14,110 nt of DNA from Oligoflexus sp. (GTDB lineage Bacteria; Bdellovibrionota_B; Oligoflexia; Oligoflexales; Oligoflexaceae). This document shows, piece after piece, positions 2,063-8,413 of the stretch (its first letter is position 1; every line of letters begins with the position of its first letter). The notes below the pieces were generated by a model. That model did not search any database. It was given only the letters and a program-made list of their open reading frames with translations, and was not told the DNA's origin. The translations under genes were made by a program, and so were the position numbers. The stretch covers positions 1 through 14,110 of the forward strand of contig JBGSTX010000178.1 in NCBI GenBank assembly GCA_041736305.1, in the 5' to 3' direction.

Positions 2063-2902
2063 TTAGGACTTCTTCGTTTTTTTCCGACCGCTGGTCTTTT
2101 TCTTAGCTCCAGCTCCACGGCTTTTGACTTTTGATTTTGCTTTGGCCTTAGAAGCTGGCTTTCTGGCCGTTTTTGCTTTGCCCTTACCCTTGGCTTTAGT
2201 GGGTTTGGACTTAGACTTTTTAGCTCCCTTGCTCTTCGATTTAGCAGGTGCTTTTTTACTTTTTGCTTTGGTTTTCGTCTTGGCTTTGGTTTTGGCCTTG
2301 CTTTTACTTTTACTCTTGCCTGCAGTTTTCTTCTTTGCCGTCTTAGCCTTCGACTTACGTTTCGCGCTCTTCACCGAGCTCTTCTTGGCCGGGGATTTCC
2401 GGGCTTTTTTGCTGGGTTTTTCGTCGTCATCGGTCTCTTCATCGGAGTCGGATGTTTCGTCTTCCTCATCATCGTCTGCCTCGGCCTCCTCATCCGCCTC
2501 ATCTTCGTCGGAATCATCGTCTTCTATATCTTCTTCATCGTCGCTATCATCCGCTTCTTCATTCTCGTCTGTGCTGTCGCTGCTCTCAGAATCTTCATCG
2601 TCACCTGCGGCCGAAGCCTTGCTTGACCAAGCCTGTCCGGCGGTGCTTAGAATGCTGTCAATCGCCGTCATGATTTTTTGTAGCTCGATGTCGAGGTGAG
2701 AGGGCTCATCGATTTCATTCAGAGATCCGATTATATACCGGACCCTGCTCTGAACCTCGTGCTCGAGTTGGCTGAGCAAATGCTCATAAGCTTCGACATG
2801 GGCATAGGACGCAAAAATCTTTTTGAGCTTATCGCCTATAGCCGGTTTCGTTTGTATCATCCGTTGCAGCAGTACTAGATAATTTTGCGAATCTAACTCC
2901 AT
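2063..2902 (-). CDS. Hypothetical protein: N-terminal helical-looking domain, acidic block and histone H1-like Lys/Ala/Ser tail
   Basis: About 100 aa of complex sequence, then 61 aa with 44 D/E and no K/R, then 118 aa with 56 K/R and no D/E. It has its own terminator. Start is ATG 2902 or TTG 2908. Confidence 0.85.
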   Translation of the reverse strand: MELDSQNYLVLLQRMIQTKPAIGDKLKKIFASYAHVEAYEHLLSQLEHEVQSRVRYIIGSLNEIDEPSHLDIELQKIMTAIDSILSTAGQAWSSKASAAGDDEDSESSDSTDENEEADDSDDEEDIEDDDSDEDEADEEAEADDDEEDETSDSDEETDDDEKPSKKARKSPAKKSSVKSAKRKSKAKTAKKKTAGKSKSKSKAKTKAKTKTKAKSKKAPAKSKSKGAKKSKSKPTKAKGKGKAKTARKPASKAKAKSKVKSRGAGAKKKTSGRKKTKKS

Positions 2903-2940
2903 AGTCAACCCCGAAGCGATGAAACCTTAAATTTAAAGCG

Positions 2941-3286: not shown

Positions 3287-3384
3287 GAGACAGACCTTGA
3301 TCCCTTCGTGAGGCCAGTGATGCTTTTCAAGCATGTTCTGAAATACCCAATCGCTTTTTAATTTTCAGTTTGGGAGATGAGCGC

Positions 3385-4260
3385 ATGAGTCAAAATGAGA
3401 ACAATGAACACGAAGAAATCCATGCCGGGACAGTCGACGATCAGCAGCCTGGACGTGAATATTACATGCATCCTTCCCCTAAATTTGATGATGCCGCCTA
3501 TGTCGGCACAAGGAAACTCGCTGACCAGGTCGTCCTGATCACCGGTGGGGACAGCGGGATAGGCCGGGCCATCGCTGTTCTAGCAGCGAAGGAAGGGGCT
3601 GACATCGCCATTGTCTATCTCGACGAGCATCAGGACGCACAAGACACCAAACACATCGTCGAAGGCTATGGACGCCAGTGCCTGCTCATCGCAGGCGACG
3701 TTGGGGACGAAGCCTTTTGCAAGGAGGCAGTCCACCGAGCTGTTGAAGGGCTCGGTCGCTTAGACTGTATGATCCTCAACGCGGCCGAGCAACACCCCGT
3801 CGCCGACATTGCGGATATTTCCGCTGAACAGCTGGAAAGAACCTTCAGGACTAACATTTTTTCGCATTTCTATCTCACTAAAGCCGCTCTCGATCACCTC
3901 CACGTTGGTTCGACTATTATTACCTGCTCTTCCGTCAACGCCTACCGGGGCCACGATTCTTTGATCGATTACTCGGCTACCAAAGGAGCTATCACCGCAT
4001 TTACCCGCTCGCTGGCGCGGGCGCTGGTTAAGCGAGGGATCCGCGTTAATAGCGTTGCGCCTGGGCCCATCTGGACCCCACTGATTACCTCTACCTTCCC
4101 CCCCGAAGAAGTCGCATCATTCGGGCAAAACACACCGATGGGTCGGGCCGGAGAGCCGGTTGAAGTGGCGAAGTGCTTTATATTCTTAGCCTCGCATGAC
4201 TCGTCCTACCTCACCGGACAAACCCTGCACCCAGATGGTGGCATGTTCGTTACTAGCTGA
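3385..4260 (+). CDS. Short-chain dehydrogenase/reductase, general-stress YdaD/YhdF/YghA-like subgroup
   Basis: TGGDSGIG (TGxxxGxG), NAA, catalytic YSATK (YxxxK), 'RVNSVAPGPIWTP', and an N-terminal extension with QQPG. GGAG RBS at 3373-3376 supports ATG 3385. Confidence 0.93.
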   Translation: MSQNENNEHEEIHAGTVDDQQPGREYYMHPSPKFDDAAYVGTRKLADQVVLITGGDSGIGRAIAVLAAKEGADIAIVYLDEHQDAQDTKHIVEGYGRQCLLIAGDVGDEAFCKEAVHRAVEGLGRLDCMILNAAEQHPVADIADISAEQLERTFRTNIFSHFYLTKAALDHLHVGSTIITCSSVNAYRGHDSLIDYSATKGAITAFTRSLARALVKRGIRVNSVAPGPIWTPLITSTFPPEEVASFGQNTPMGRAGEPVEVAKCFIFLASHDSSYLTGQTLHPDGGMFVTS

Positions 4261-4285
4261 TAGGCCACTTTTTTGGGGGTTTGGC

Positions 4286-4516
4286 ATGCTTGGTGATATT
4301 GAACGCAGCAAGATTTGGCACTGGAAACGCTACCTTGAAGGACTACGCTACCCGGCCGTTAAAGAAGATATCCTGGTTAAAGCTCGACGAATGAATGCAC
4401 CGGCTGAAATGATCGACTTGCTGCTTGGCTCGCCGGAGCGGCGGTATGAGAAGGTGGAGGAGGTTCTTGAGCTTATTGAGGCTCTGGACGTGAGGAGAGA
4501 TCCGGAAGGCCGCTGA
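4286..4516 (+). CDS. DUF2795 domain-containing small protein
   Basis: 'YLEGLRYPAVKEDILVKARRMNAPAEMIDLLLGSPERRYEKVEEV' matches the DUF2795 pattern (L.G..YPA.K..L...A....A......L..LP...Y....EV). ATG 4286 is 25 bp after the SDR stop. Confidence 0.85.
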   Translation: MLGDIERSKIWHWKRYLEGLRYPAVKEDILVKARRMNAPAEMIDLLLGSPERRYEKVEEVLELIEALDVRRDPEGR

Positions 4517-4562
4517 ACTTGCAGCTTTTACTCCGGATTTGCTTGTATCTTGCACTGAAGAT

Positions 4563-4642
4563 GGGCTGGGGCTGGGGCTGGGTTTTGGTTCTCATTCGGG
4601 ACCTGGTTCGGGTTCGGGGTCTGGTTCGGGATCTAATTCGGG
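4563..4642 (+). repeat. G-rich simple repeats: GGGCTGGGGCTGGGGCTGGG plus five TTCGGG units
   Basis: G3CT-G4CT-G4CT-G3 at 4563-4582; TTCGGG at 4595, 4607, 4613, 4625 and 4637 (6/12-bp spacing). Confidence 0.85.
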
Positions 4643-4672
4643 ATCCAGCTGATAGCTGTGAGTTGATGGAGG

Positions 4673-4712
4673 AGGTAGAGATTTCTGATCTTTAGATCAG
4701 AGATCTCTACCT
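4673..4712. repeat. 40-bp near-perfect palindrome bounded by GTAG...CTAC (REP-like)
   Basis: AGGTAGAGATTTCTGATCT-TT-AGATCAGAGATCTCTACCT: 19-bp arms with a single T/G mismatch (4683/4702) and no poly-T tail on either strand. It overlaps the stop codon of the minus-strand gene. Confidence 0.85.
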
Positions 4713-5223
4713 ACCTACCCCCCTCGTAATTCCTAATCCTCTCTATCAACTTCGGACGAACCATATTCGTCCGATCCGGAATACCCAAAACATCCGCCAT
4801 CCTCAATAAATCCTCATCACTAAAACGATCAAACTCATTCCTCAAATCAAGAGGAATCGCCGGCGTAGGATCATGATGAGTCACCGGATCATGAATCTCC
4901 TCCGTAATCTGACCCACCGCCTCAAGCTGCGTATCCACCGACTCCGAACTGTAGTCGGAATCACCCAAAAGCCGGTCCTTACGCTCATAACTCCACGAAT
5001 CATCAGTATCCGCCGTACTACCACCCGAAACTATAGTATGACCCTTCAAAGCCATATCATCCCGATTCGCCATATGAGCCGTCTCCTCAAAAATCGTCTC
5101 CTGATCCTCCGAAAGCTCCTCACTATCCTGACCCAAACGCTCAGGAACACGACCCCCCTTCCCCTTAAACGATGCCCCGCTTTGACCGTGATTGCGTACC
5201 TTACTTACCTTCACTGTAGTCAT
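4711..5223 (-). CDS. Acidic hydrophilic protein with C-terminal Rho-termination-factor N-terminal-like (Rho_N/HeH) motif
   Basis: AGGAGG RBS before ATG 5223. The C-terminus 'FDRFSDEDLLRMADVLGIPDRTNMVRPKLIERIR' resembles the Rho_N pattern (L..MT..EL..LA..LGI.G.S.M.K..LI..I). The domain call is by eye. Confidence 0.75.
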   Translation of the reverse strand: MTTVKVSKVRNHGQSGASFKGKGGRVPERLGQDSEELSEDQETIFEETAHMANRDDMALKGHTIVSGGSTADTDDSWSYERKDRLLGDSDYSSESVDTQLEAVGQITEEIHDPVTHHDPTPAIPLDLRNEFDRFSDEDLLRMADVLGIPDRTNMVRPKLIERIRNYEGGR

Positions 5224-5461
5224 AAAACCTCCTGTTTGGCTGTCGCCCAAGCTCCACCAAAGAACATGCAAGAAGAATGCTATCACTCAGGATTTCTACG
5301 GAAAAGTTCTAGCTGAACCGCAGAATCAGCCAAGTTTGAAAATTAATAAACTACTGCGTAAAAAAAGCTTGCCTTAAATATGTCGCTCTGCCATATACGT
5401 CGAGCACCAAATCAAAATAGCATAGCAAATAAAACTCAAATCAGAACGATGGAGCTCCGAT

Positions 5462-6244
5462 ATGAAAGTTCAAACCATAAGCGCCTCCGCAATAATCGCT
5501 CTTGCTCTTGTAATCATCGGCTGCGGCAAAGATTCGAATAACAAAAAATCCTCTATAGACCCTGCACCAATCCCCAATAATGATAGCTTCTTCCCCGAAG
5601 ATCAGTTCGGCGATAATTCTGATGAATTCAACGGATCCTGCGGTCAATCACAAAATGGCTGCAATTCAGATTCGGATAGTCCCCGTCTTACTATCGTCTC
5701 TTCGCAATCTTGGCGCTACACAAACGCCAACCAAGCCCGCATCACAGAGTCTCCTGAAAGCTGCATCCAAAGCCTTAGCAGCAGTTCGAACGGCGTCGAT
5801 CTCAAACTCCGCAATATGGAAGTTCGCGCTGAATCAGATCGTTCAGGAGCTTCGGCCCGCTGCTTGATGCAGGCCAAAGTCCGCTATCCCAAAGGCTACT
5901 CTTTCGCAATCCGCAGAGTTCGTCTCACAGTCGATACCACTATCCGCTCAGGCGCTAGCGCTAGCTTCCAAGGATCCTATTCTGCTGTCGGGAGCACGAG
6001 CGTTGAAATGAGCCGATCTATTAATAAGAATGGAACCAGTTCCATAGTTATCGAAAAATCACTCAATAGCAGCGAATATGCTTGGTCGAGCTGTGACGGC
6101 GAAGGTACTTTGTCGGTCAATACCACCCTCAAGCTGCAAAGAAACGCAACTTTCTCCGGCGTCGATCCGAGTTCTATGGGAGATATCACGGTGAGCGATG
6201 AAGCTCCTTATCGAGTTGAGATCGTCTGGGCCAAGTGCAGCTGA
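5462..6244 (+). CDS. Lipoprotein with DUF4360-like domain
   Basis: Lipobox-like 'LVIIGC', a low-complexity linker, then 'ARC.M...VRYPKGYSFAI', 'GASA', 'WSSCDG...LSVNT.L.L' and terminal 'W.KC', resembling DUF4360. GGAG RBS at 5451-5454. Confidence 0.75.
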   Translation: MKVQTISASAIIALALVIIGCGKDSNNKKSSIDPAPIPNNDSFFPEDQFGDNSDEFNGSCGQSQNGCNSDSDSPRLTIVSSQSWRYTNANQARITESPESCIQSLSSSSNGVDLKLRNMEVRAESDRSGASARCLMQAKVRYPKGYSFAIRRVRLTVDTTIRSGASASFQGSYSAVGSTSVEMSRSINKNGTSSIVIEKSLNSSEYAWSSCDGEGTLSVNTTLKLQRNATFSGVDPSSMGDITVSDEAPYRVEIVWAKCS

Positions 6245-6258
6245 GACATTTAGCAAAT

Positions 6259-6291
6259 AAAAAAAGGCTAGCCGTTCGCTAGCCTTTTTTT
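6259..6291. terminator. Bidirectional intrinsic terminator
   Basis: A7-GGCTAGC-CGTTC-GCTAGCC-T7 between convergent genes. Confidence 0.92.
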
Positions 6292-6307
6292 GCTTTGAGG
6301 CCCAGCC

Positions 6308-6775
6308 TCAAGCAGTCTTATGATTGCCGAAGGGATCCATCTTAAATGGATCACCTAGACCCGCCAAGCCCTCTTCCCAAACTTTAATGTGAAGCGGATC
6401 GACCGAAAGCAGTTCGGCCCCAAGGAACACACGGAGAATCGTCCCCGTTTCGAGGGCAACTGAGCCCTCCTCTTTGCGCCTCACCACCACCTTGAGATGG
6501 ATAGGCCGGCGAAAGACACTGGATGACGTATCGATCGTGAGATTAAGGACGTCGCCTATCGAAAATGGAATATGGCCATAACCCAGATACTCAAGGCCAA
6601 CCCCCGAAGCAGAAACATTCGCAAGATTGAGCCAGAAACAGGCGCAACGCGATCGATCGTTTTTCACAATCGTCTTCACACCGTTGATGAGATTGAAGCG
6701 CTGAAAACGCGATTTCATGTGGTGATGTTTGTTTTGTCGCACAATTCGGCTTTCATGAAATGTCTGGTTTTTCAA
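6308..6775 (-). CDS. PilZ-like domain protein (start uncertain; may be GTG 6742 or ATG 6718)
   Basis: 'SRFQRF' followed by 'NVSASG' (D/NxSxxG) and a beta-rich pattern 'GDVLNLTI...LKVVVRR...GAEL'. Confidence 0.7.
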   Translation of the reverse strand: MKNQTFHESRIVRQNKHHHMKSRFQRFNLINGVKTIVKNDRSRCACFWLNLANVSASGVGLEYLGYGHIPFSIGDVLNLTIDTSSSVFRRPIHLKVVVRRKEEGSVALETGTILRVFLGAELLSVDPLHIKVWEEGLAGLGDPFKMDPFGNHKTA

Positions 6776-6784
6776 ACACTAAGT

Positions 6785-6811
6785 CTTTCGACTCATTTCC
6801 AGAAAGCTTGA
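6785..6811 (-). promoter_or_regulatory. Putative sigma-28 (FliA)-like promoter for the PilZ-like gene
   Basis: Minus strand TCAA-N15-GTCGAAAG, compared with the FliA consensus TAAA-N15-GCCGATAA. Confidence 0.5.
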
Positions 6812-7256
6812 AACCTAAATGGAACTTGGTGCAACGACGGGACAAAATACGATATCTCAATGCCCTCATCAAATGTTCAAGTTCGCCCACATCCGCATTT
6901 TTTCAATTCTGCCTTCAGGGTAGTTTTTTTCCGAGCATTTGGCTGAGACGCGGACGCTCCAAGCTGGCCCCTCCCCCAACAGGCGCGCAGTGAGCCCACT
7001 GCCTAAAAATCCGCTTGCACCGCTTAGCGCTGTTTTCATTAAGATTCCTGCTTTATGGGGAGTGGGGGTAGGCGCAAGATATTCGCCTTACTCTATGATT
7101 CTCAAGAGGAAAGCAAGCTGTCAACGGCCCAGGCATAGGACTGAGCCCTCGCGTGACACCCTGCAGCAGAATTGGTCACATTCGATAAATCCTGCCTTAC
7201 AGTAAATTTCGGCTAAACACCTGGACTTCTCTCCCTTTGCCCGGAGCCAGATGGGG

Positions 7257-7273
7257 CTGGCACCGCTCTTGCT
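7257..7273 (+). promoter_or_regulatory. Sigma-54 -24/-12 promoter for the trypsin-fold lipoprotein gene
   Basis: CTGGCACCGCTCTTGCT matches TGGCAC-N5-TTGC exactly, about 60 bp upstream of ATG 7334. Confidence 0.75.
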
Positions 7274-7333
7274 CTACTGAAGCCGAGATCGCCTCACTCT
7301 GTGGGGCACAGCTGAATAACTGGAGAGTTGCTC

Positions 7334-8413
7334 ATGTACCCACTGTTGAAGAAATCCTATTCCCCGCTGCTTCTAAGTCTTTCCTTAATCGGCACAGCTT
7401 GTCTTCCTGTCTCAAACAAAAGCGAAACCCAAGTAGTCAATGGCGACCCTAGTACCGACTTCGAAACGACCGTGAGTCTCAAGATCGAGAAAGAAAAAGT
7501 GATCGAGTACTGCGCGGGTGTGTTCGTACGAAGCAACCTGCTTTTAACATCAGGACTCTGTCTGGAAGGTGCTAAAACTGTAACTGTAAGCAATGACAGT
7601 GGCGTATTCAAAAACAATCCAGTTAGTTCGCAAAGCTTCAAGATCCATGGAAAATATACCTCCAAACTAGCCGAGAAGACTATCGACGGCCAGACTACCA
7701 CTTACCCCTATGTGCCCAATGAAAATATTTTCGCGGACATGGGTCTCGTTATCTTCCCTAAAGACACTGCACCAGCATCCATGATAGCCAACATCGCGAG
7801 CTCCGATTCTCTAGTTGGCGATAGCGTTTGGCTTGCCGGCTTTGGCGCTGTAAATAGTGCAGGAGAAGGCCGCGGCACGCGCCGCGTCGGCAAGAATAAA
7901 ATCGCTGAATTCTCCAGCGACGACTATAAGGTTATCAGCCTAAAGAATGAAAGAGATTCCAACGGAGCTCTCATGGGAGCTGGCGATAGGGGTGGACCGC
8001 TTTACAATGAAAAGAAAGAAATCATCGGTATCACTTCGACAAAGTCCAATAAAACCTCAACGGGCTACTACGCGAACGTCAGGTCTAGCCTCTCCATCAA
8101 GTTCGTACAAGAAGCTATGGGCGTTGTCAGCAGCTCATCGAATTCTAGCAACTCAGCAAACTCCAGCAACTCAGCAAACTCCAGCGCTTTAAGTCTCAGC
8201 AAGAGTTGTGAATTCGGCCAGATTACCGTAATAAAGTTCAAAGATGCCGGATCAAGTAAGGTTCTATCGGTGAATAGCTGTACGAATGTCACAGCTTCCT
8301 GCACCGAGGGTAATCTTCTTAATCTGAAGGCAAGTAATTCTTCGGCCTCTACTCTCATTTCGACAGCCGCTATCTGCGAAAAAATTCGTGATGAAATAGG
8401 TCGGACTCAGTGA
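7334..8413 (+). CDS. S1 (trypsin-fold) protease homologue lipoprotein, predicted catalytically inactive
   Basis: Lipobox-like 'LIGTAC', 'VVNG', 'CAG', 'LLTSGLC' (normally TAAHC), 'DMGLV', 'LAGFG', 'GDRGGPL' (normally GDSGGPL) and 'IIGITS', then a Ser/Asn linker and a 4-Cys C-terminal domain. GGAG RBS at 7322. Confidence 0.85.
   Translation: MYPLLKKSYSPLLLSLSLIGTACLPVSNKSETQVVNGDPSTDFETTVSLKIEKEKVIEYCAGVFVRSNLLLTSGLCLEGAKTVTVSNDSGVFKNNPVSSQSFKIHGKYTSKLAEKTIDGQTTTYPYVPNENIFADMGLVIFPKDTAPASMIANIASSDSLVGDSVWLAGFGAVNSAGEGRGTRRVGKNKIAEFSSDDYKVISLKNERDSNGALMGAGDRGGPLYNEKKEIIGITSTKSNKTSTGYYANVRSSLSIKFVQEAMGVVSSSSNSSNSANSSNSANSSALSLSKSCEFGQITVIKFKDAGSSKVLSVNSCTNVTASCTEGNLLNLKASNSSASTLISTAAICEKIRDEIGRTQ
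8147..8185 (+). repeat. In-frame 18-bp tandem duplication (SNSANS x2)
   Basis: AGCAACTCAGCAAACTCC at 8147-8164 and 8165-8182, plus a partial AGC. Confidence 0.9.

Follow-up and report, generated by a model that had tools for sequence, protein, structure and literature searches.

Strand skews in bacteria are usually treated as weak, genome-wide marks of replication and, less often, of transcription. At the synonymous sites of vertebrate mitochondrial DNA (mtDNA) the skew is comparable in size to that of the locus described here, and in R-loop-prone G-rich regions, such as immunoglobulin switch regions and GC-skewed eukaryotic terminators, the displaced strand is a substrate for deamination. 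Deamination of single-stranded DNA leaves an excess of C->T and A->G on one strand, for which vertebrate mtDNA is the best-documented case: one study describes a deamination gradient on its displaced single strand that combines C->T and A->G changes (PMC8565317). Another reports an A->G excess on the non-transcribed strand (PMC2927911). Here we analyse a window of 14,110 nucleotides (nt), the whole of contig C302 of an Oligoflexus sp. genome (G000, a draft metagenome-assembled genome (MAG) of 5.02 Mb in 392 contigs, 92.7% complete). In this window the + strand flips from G/T-rich to A/C-rich at a hairpin on which two genes converge, a small DUF2795 gene on the + strand and the gene of an acidic 170-amino-acid protein on the minus strand (the minus gene). 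A 460-bp stretch of the minus gene, an ordinary conserved gene, has about 95% G or T at its free sites, a strength otherwise familiar from vertebrate mtDNA.

Size and position of the composition flip

The flip between G+T and A+C is the largest of the genome in a sliding scan of the whole of G000, with 500-nt as well as with 400-nt windows; the other large flips in the 400-nt scan are of both signs equally often (36 vs 33). The cumulative (G+T)-(A+C) walk over the 14-kb window reaches its maximum at 4693, inside the hairpin loop. Of the 4,708,571 genome positions, 11 have a rise-and-fall statistic as high as this; the top is C302:4695 (score 222), and the best score on any other contig is 190. 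On recount, which reproduced all the hand counts of the earlier note, G and T make up 86 of the 120 letters of the + strand at 4561-4680 and 39 of the 120 at 4711-4830. To the left the bias has its full strength over ~0.3 kb, to the right over ~0.46 kb, and there a weak tail extends over a further ~3 kb.

The earlier note held that each strand grows richer in G and T in the 5' to 3' direction toward the sharp end, that the upstream SDR gene lacks the bias, and that the flip is not replichore skew. All three statements are borne out: the share of codons with G or T at the third position (GT3) is 0.44 in the SDR gene, the baseline is regained within ~0.3 kb to the left and within ~4 kb to the right, and the genome holds six further loci of this type, here called ramp loci. 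A general rise toward the 3' ends of genes was rejected, the deciles of GT3 within genes moving only from 0.507 to 0.519. The features of the window that concern the flip are listed below.

3370-4260, + strand: SDR gene, with a normal GT3
4286-4516, + strand: DUF2795 gene (Pfam PF11387, E 8e-13) of 76 amino acids, converging on the hairpin
4561-4672, + strand: G/T-rich repeat tract in the interval from DUF2795 to the hairpin, with 78% and 65% G+T in 60-nt windows
4673-4712, no strand: palindrome, with 19-nt arms, one mismatch and a 2-nt spacer
4711-5223, minus strand: gene of the acidic 170-amino-acid protein, family not assigned, with conserved homologues
5224-5461, no strand: divergent intergenic region of 238 bp, A/C-rich on the + strand (G+T 0.30-0.45 per 60 nt)
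5462-6244, + strand: DUF4360 lipoprotein gene (Pfam PF14273, E 6e-15)
6308-6775, minus strand: PilZ-like gene
7328-8413, + strand: trypsin-like protease gene

The 170-amino-acid gene

The bias is strongest in the minus gene, where 155 of the 171 codons end in G or T (G79 T76 A8 C8), among them 142 of the 150 nearest the palindrome. Its GT3 is the maximum among the 3537 open reading frames (ORFs) of at least 150 amino acids that form the genome set (mean 0.513, standard deviation 0.042), the next values being 0.75 and 0.74. Counting only codons of synonymous families, 148 of 164 end in G or T, against 81.1 expected from genome usage (z 10.6). Eight of the 16 exceptions lie within the first 17 codons, five ending in A and three in C. 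A-ending codons are enriched at gene starts genome-wide, and ordinary selection at the gene start can explain these exceptions. From codon 18 to codon 170 the share is 145 of 153 (95%), and at the 5' end of the gene the bias falls from 95% to ~60% within roughly 300 nt.

The gene is real and conserved. Its ribosome-binding site is AGGAGG, and it shares its MT... start with its homologues, which occur in nine of 13 same-genus genomes at 40-50% identity. Identity to two database proteins, P0005 and P0006, is 67% and 65%; long blocks are invariant, and the MT... start is again the same. The earlier note had proposed a comparison of orthologues. Eleven homologues with available DNA (26-50% identity) have ordinary codons (GT3 0.41-0.63) and different neighbours, and since homologues have normal codons, the bias arose in this lineage. 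Scans of metagenomes and genome collections returned no close relative with DNA and only one extra homologue, at 50% identity. The protein has no Pfam match (E<=5) and no PDB profile match; a Rho-N/SAP-like C-terminus, which was considered, is likewise unsupported by these searches. An ORF of 147 amino acids (4873-5316, + strand) lies antisense to the gene. We regard it as a by-product of the bias and no gene, because sense codons that never end in A leave the antisense frame free of stops.

Two other sequencing runs cover the locus. X1 has an independent assembly, in which one contig spans 3300-5203, crosses the palindrome and shows 0 differences to the window. X2 comes from a different study and represents a separate strain, ~97% identical over the 170-amino-acid gene; its differences were counted by hand among those listed and are lower bounds, with at least 14 in the 513 nt. 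X2 retains the bias, with roughly 151 of 171 codons ending in G or T among the differences listed. The bias is real and heritable and is no artefact, since one X1 contig crosses the site and the X2 strain of another study shares it. An assembly join at the palindrome, which the earlier note had named as fatal to its claim, is excluded by the X1 contig. The X2 contigs break at 4555/4611, within the left repeat tract. X2 also lacks 7 nt (4714-4720) at the extreme end of the gene, so that the last residues and the stop codon must differ from those of the window.

The run that best covers the locus is labelled as a hot-springs metagenome. G000 holds two similar but non-identical ribosomal-protein clusters (C245:66-5164 and C385:5375-13602) and two GroEL-GroES pairs (C219 and C243), which would mean a mixture of two related strains in the bin or else a duplication of these genes.

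A pressure on nucleotides

The bias acts on nucleotides and not on codons or translation. The four-fold sites of the minus gene are G33 T32 A4 C2, against expected values of 15.8/18.8/12.2/24.2. The ratio of purines to pyrimidines is thereby roughly kept, which is what a predominance of C->T and A->G would give, and the composition points to these two changes as the direction of mutation, with G/(G+A) at 0.96 and T/(T+C) at 0.94. Among first codon positions, the one synonymous site that is free to respond, that of leucine, is shifted as well. The purine-ending leucine codons are TTR in eight cases and CTR in none, against a genome TTR share of 0.37. The family does not conserve the N-terminal tail. 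Of its 42 residues here, 11 belong to the class G, V, F, W and C, in whose codons the first two letters are always G or T; the same residue class accounts for 0 of 41 and 2 of 41 residues in the tails of the two closest homologues. The ribosomal-protein clusters, EF-Tu, EF-G and the two GroEL genes have a normal GT3 (0.42-0.59). The leucine first positions, the tail residues, the shift of neighbours of either orientation and the normal state of these expressed genes all support the mutational type of strand-asymmetric footprint that the earlier note had proposed.

Among the differences listed, at least 11 of 171 third positions of the minus gene differ from X2, vs at least eight among the first 171 codons of the DUF4360 gene. 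Third positions thus vary and are not frozen, which disfavours strong selection on them, as this would predict clearly fewer differences. The mRNA of the minus gene folds at -152 kcal/mol, a normal value beside its synonymous recodings (-159.5 +/- 9.2), and its antisense RNA folds at -92.6 kcal/mol against -157.6 +/- 12.0 kcal/mol for the recodings, which makes it less structured by five standard deviations. As to repair, endonuclease V (PF04493) was searched for and not found in the 92.7% complete genome, which is at most a hint to the cause; one UDG-family gene is present (C27:39303-39770).

A class of ramp loci

The ramp loci of G000 form a class, of which the one in the window is the extreme case. 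The third positions of the called ORFs, referred to the + strand, were scanned in 120-codon windows with a cut-off of 78% G/T, and seven loci pass: C302, C54, C355, C32, C98, C185 and C83. The stretches outside the window, including a weaker one on C34, are as follows.

C54:1-3732: starts near 0.5 and climbs to 0.95 in the course of 3.7 kb, across the Tex, MTAP and thioesterase genes up to the contig end
C355:7000-11000: rises to 0.9, with a strand flip at about 8990
C32:19900-21120: stops just upstream of a co-oriented tRNA-Val gene
C98:29000-34050: stops just upstream of a co-oriented tRNA-Leu gene
C185:800-6900: stops just upstream of a co-oriented tmRNA gene
C83:8600-9700: ramp stretch
C34:2000-5480: weaker ramp, which stops before tRNA-Pro

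At the six loci with a visible end, the G/T-rich strand always runs 5' to 3' toward the sharp end. The peaks of the other ramps have the same signature as the window: G/(G+C) and T/(T+A) are both ~0.8, and G/(G+A) and T/(T+C) are also about 0.8. An Rfam search (E<=1) of the window and the six ramp loci gave only known tRNAs and tmRNA, with none at the hairpin or at the sharp ends of C355 and C83.

The association with tRNA genes extends beyond the loci that pass the cut-off. Around the 37 tRNA and tmRNA genes of G000, the third-position G/T share on the tRNA strand lies at 0.54-0.58 over 3.5 kb of upstream sequence and at 0.49-0.51 downstream, and the medians agree. In a complete related genome (G006) with 32 tRNA loci (L020-L051), the share over 2 kb is 0.528 upstream against 0.487 downstream, with a positive upstream-minus-downstream difference in 22 of the 32. 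By hand means, the G006 share is 0.57 at the 12 loci whose upstream genes are co-oriented and 0.49 at the seven where they are anti-oriented. Two tRNA genes of this genome lie on opposite strands at a distance of ~117 kb, and the ramp of each is on the strand of its tRNA gene (L035, 0.68; L037, 0.59), so that ramp polarity follows the gene and not a single fork direction.

Many matches of a six-frame scan for G/T periodicity were dropped as out-of-frame or low-complexity artefacts. An A/C-rich extreme on C59 was set aside as an amino-acid effect of a Pro/Gln/Thr repeat protein.

The hairpin, the left tract and DUF2795

The arms of the palindrome, 4673-4691 and 4694-4712, are 95% complementary, and the stop codon at the end of the minus gene is overlapped by the second arm. 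As RNA the hairpin folds at -35.7 kcal/mol (z -6.5) on one strand and -34.2 kcal/mol on the other, with a 4-nt fold loop, and in X2 a T>C change at 4683 gives a perfect stem. No T-run follows the hairpin on either strand, and a terminator scan reports no site there; an intrinsic, bidirectional terminator was thus rejected, since the strong hairpin has no U-tract. A second copy of the palindrome was sought in the genome with a 38-nt query (<=8 mismatches) and with 17-nt arms (<=2 mismatches), and none was found. The earlier note had treated the palindrome as the seat of the process. Nothing shows it to be the cause: it is single-copy, and the six other ramps stop at different features, three of them at tRNA or tmRNA genes. 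The related idea of a REP/RAYT element also fails, the palindrome being single-copy in 5.0 Mb. A search of the 92.7% complete genome for PF01797 (Y1/HUH transposase) gave four matches, all of them partial, which lie at the ends of contigs or contain internal stops; C302 has none. A large degenerate inverted duplication across the palindrome was looked for and not found.

On the left, DUF2795 has 26 of 29 codons ending in G or T over 4418-4504, against 21 of 44 earlier in the gene, as first counted. The bias is concentrated in codons 45-70 (4418-4495; 24 of 26), and the last seven codons are unbiased. In the tract between the gene and the hairpin, (GGGCTG)x3.3 makes up a G-quadruplex-type motif with four runs (4563-4582), and the 12-nt unit GGTTCGGGATCT is repeated about three times; TTCGGG occurs five times. 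On the minus strand, the RNA of 4555-4672 is rich in C and poor in G and folds at -13.0 kcal/mol, no better than shuffles, whereas the + strand reaches -45.3. A rut-type region consists of some 80 nt of unstructured RNA with much C and little G, and the minus-strand RNA of 4555-4672, downstream of the minus gene, has this composition. The intergenic element and the DNA of DUF2795 are not conserved in the 13 same-genus genomes, two of which hold distant DUF2795 homologues.

A second open frame (4494-4652, + strand) overlaps the end of DUF2795, crosses the repeat tract, encodes GL/GS repeats and stops 20 nt before the hairpin. The DUF2795 homologues of relatives are longer (111 and 125 amino acids) and have disordered tails. 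DUF2795 may thus have a frameshifted or alternative C-terminal tail. Similar repeats occur on two other contigs. One contig opens with twelve GGGCTA copies (C227:3-74), the same type of G-rich hexamer as at 4563-4580 of the window, with no clear ramp beside it. At C142:41233-41428 there are at least 14 tandem copies of a 15-nt unit with CCCGAA, and the minus strand is open in all three frames. As anchors, TTCGGG arrays and (GGGCTN)n repeats were rejected, since no convincing ramp adjoins those on C142 and C227.

The right flank

Beyond the minus gene, in the gene at 5462, A or C is the last letter of 63 of the first 100 codons and G of seven, in agreement with the first count. The GT3 of this DUF4360 gene on its own strand is 0.40, the 16th lowest of the 3537; its coding strand is A/C-biased, so the minus strand is still G/T-rich through a gene of opposite orientation. 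The PilZ-like gene (minus strand, GT3 0.60) and the protease gene (+ strand, GT3 0.43) follow, each value again on the gene's own strand. Referred to the + strand, GT3 is 0.40 in DUF4360, 0.40 in PilZ and 0.43 in the protease gene, then about 0.48. From 5462 to 8413, referred to the minus strand, 495 of 868 third positions are G or T (0.57), and the baseline is regained beyond about 8.5 kb in window coordinates.

Far to the left, an ORF at 2063-2908 (minus strand) encodes a long Asp/Glu run and then a Lys/Ala/Ser-rich, histone-H1-like basic tail, without a Pfam match. The AT skew of -0.68 at 2100-2500 is due to the composition of this product; it is an amino-acid effect, separate from the flip.

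Origin of the bias

Tentatively, and with a little less than even confidence, we favour an origin in transcription, in which the non-template strands of the two genes are recurrently exposed by R-loops or by polymerases held at the shared hairpin, in a process that feeds itself. Two transcription units, DUF2795 (+) and the 170-amino-acid gene (-), would converge on a hairpin common to both, and the flip would mark the place where they meet. The strand that heads 5' to 3' into the hairpin would be pushed toward G and T by a lasting excess of C->T and A->G, the mark of DNA that is repeatedly single-stranded and deaminated. The exposed strands would be the non-template strands of both genes, opened by R-loops or by RNA polymerases stalled at the hairpin and the G-cluster tract. 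G-rich RNA on a C-rich template would favour hybrids, which may make the process self-reinforcing, and self-reinforcement would explain a few runaway loci amid normal genes. As a by-product, transcripts that cross the hairpin from either side would turn C-rich, G-poor and unstructured, the type of RNA on which Rho loads. In both convergent genes it is the sense strand that is rich in G and T, and the G-clusters of the left tract sit on the non-template strand.

Several observations weigh against this origin. The ribosomal and chaperone genes, expected to be the most transcribed, are without bias, so transcription alone is insufficient. Convergent gene ends show no excess bias genome-wide (0.517 vs 0.516 for tandem ends), and a general convergent-end effect is thus rejected. 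The RNase P RNA and 6S RNA loci have no ramp, which also rejects highly transcribed stable RNA genes as a universal anchor. Anti-oriented genes within the ramps contradict a role for each gene's own transcription; an example is the alpha/beta-hydrolase gene on C185 (Pfam E 2e-25), which has the opposite orientation and an A/C-rich coding strand. The weak right tail of the window likewise disregards gene orientation, and the transcription of DUF4360 and of the protease gene predicts the opposite sign. The left side, finally, is patchy, with 4418-4495 and 4561-4672 biased and a 65-nt gap at 4496-4560 unbiased.

It is possible, if doubtful, that Oligoflexus-type bacteria carry discrete anchor sites that hold one strand single-stranded over hundreds to thousands of bases and so rewrite synonymous sites to an mtDNA-like skew, by an undescribed process. 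The anchors would then be the hairpin with its G-cluster tract, several tRNA and tmRNA gene starts, and at least two other sites. Candidate agents are persistent R-loops, polymerase pile-ups, and unwinding or resection by a helicase or nuclease. If so, the ramps would be natural recorders of where the process takes place.

A local fork stall, already considered in the earlier note, is unlikely, although parts of it fit. Leftward forks would pause at the hairpin, at the G-cluster tract or at the head-on DUF2795 gene; on the right the minus strand would be exposed as lagging template, and uncoupling ahead of the fork would expose the + strand on the left. The terminus-like polarity is what such a model predicts, the ~3 kb weak right ramp is indifferent to gene orientation, and the C302 baseline is slightly G/T-rich on the minus strand. 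Other ramps cross anti-oriented genes and stop at tRNA and tmRNA genes, which are replication obstacles in other organisms. However, the G006 ramps track tRNA orientation, on both strands within 117 kb and only with co-oriented upstream genes, which weakens a plain version of the model. The third-position baseline of replication skew is near zero in both G000 and G006, and the drop from 95% to ~60% in roughly 300 nt is sharper than a distribution of gap lengths would give. Breakage at the palindrome with 5' to 3' resection, after which the 3'-ended strands (+ on the left, - on the right) stay single-stranded and deaminate, takes up the cleavage idea of the earlier note and is improbable. Its polarity is right on both sides, the turning point lies in the hairpin loop, and the decay with distance is like that of resection tracts. 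Error-prone resynthesis of the resected strand, in turn, would be expected to give the opposite polarity. Yet the stem is short (19-nt arms) and single-copy, no comparable palindrome stands at the sharp ends of the other ramp loci, the effect is very unequal between the two sides, and genes for IS200/RAYT-type HUH nucleases exist only as fragments, none of them on C302.

Selection rather than mutation could act on RNA or DNA composition, for instance if C-rich, unstructured read-through served as a two-way Rho-dependent terminator or in antisense silencing. We consider this unlikely. The normal fold of the mRNA beside a far less structured antisense RNA, the unstructured minus-strand RNA of 4555-4672 and the hairpin without a U-tract would all suit it. 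Rho, however, needs only about 80-100 nt, and here 460 nt are saturated; such a signal does not require an excess of T over A; third-position divergence from X2 is not lowered among the differences listed; the amino acids of the N-terminal tail are shifted too; and the same signature appears in kb-long ramps through housekeeping genes (Tex, MTAP, MtnA, thioesterase). Translational selection for G/U-ending codons, matched to a special tRNA pool or stress state, is very improbable and already largely refuted. The 170-amino-acid protein and DUF2795 look like small stress-type proteins, but leucine first positions and non-coding flanks are also shifted, neighbours shift by DNA strand whatever their gene orientation, highly expressed genes show no such preference and orthologues are normal. 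That the flip is an artefact of assembly or sequencing, or the chromosomal terminus, is scarcely credible. The fragmentation of the draft MAG (392 contigs) would allow an artefact, but the X1 contig bridges the site, the X2 strain shares the bias, and the protein is conserved and intact. For the terminus, the skew returns to baseline within ~4 kb and there are six like loci; the composition shows local decay and no single persistent genome-scale switch (a dif site was not searched for).

Significance and comparison with known systems

Strand-asymmetric mutation on exposed DNA is well known as a kind of cause. A full-text literature search, mostly at listing level, returned no description of local third-position ramps in bacteria; within that search, the local, anchored and near-saturating form in a bacterial chromosome, with ramps before tRNA genes, was not found described. 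If the cause is local single-strandedness, composition alone would map long-lived R-loops and polymerase or fork barriers in uncultured organisms. The ratio of forward to backward mutation would then differ roughly twenty-fold between neighbouring genes, and mutation pressure, not selection, could set codon usage and even amino-acid make-up. Local pressure on codons matters for the codon-based inference of expression and of horizontal transfer.

Among known systems, a diversity-generating retroelement was rejected: there is no direct repeat of the gene in 4100-5500, and A and C are equally depleted, at third positions (a reverse transcriptase search was not run). With REP/RAYT elements the locus shares an extragenic palindrome at a convergent gene end, but the palindrome is single-copy in 5.0 Mb, and Y1 transposases are present only as fragments, elsewhere in the genome. 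The sign of change, from G/T-rich to A/C-rich on the + strand, is that of GC and TA replication skew at a terminus; here it is local, more than 10x the genome baseline and present at several loci, so that this is not a terminus.

Transcription-associated asymmetry is closer, with the same pair of substitutions and G+T-enriched sense strands in both convergent genes. Its known effects are nevertheless small and scale with expression, whereas here one gene reaches ~95%, ribosomal and chaperone genes are unaffected, and the weak tail crosses genes of opposite orientation. R-loop-prone regions resemble the locus in their non-template G-clusters next to a transcript 3' end; they differ in that no deaminase enzyme is implied here, that the setting is a bacterial chromosome, and that R-loops would have to be assumed. 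Paired enrichment at neutral sites, graded with distance from an anchor, is found here as in a deamination gradient on single-stranded DNA, with the direction of change read from composition. Vertebrate mtDNA, where a whole replicon is affected, differs from this 0.5-5 kb patch in a bacterial chromosome, which has terminus-like polarity on both sides of a hairpin and implies no displacement replication, and is like it in the paired C->T and A->G changes on the exposed strand, in their graded strength and in the structured elements that bound them.

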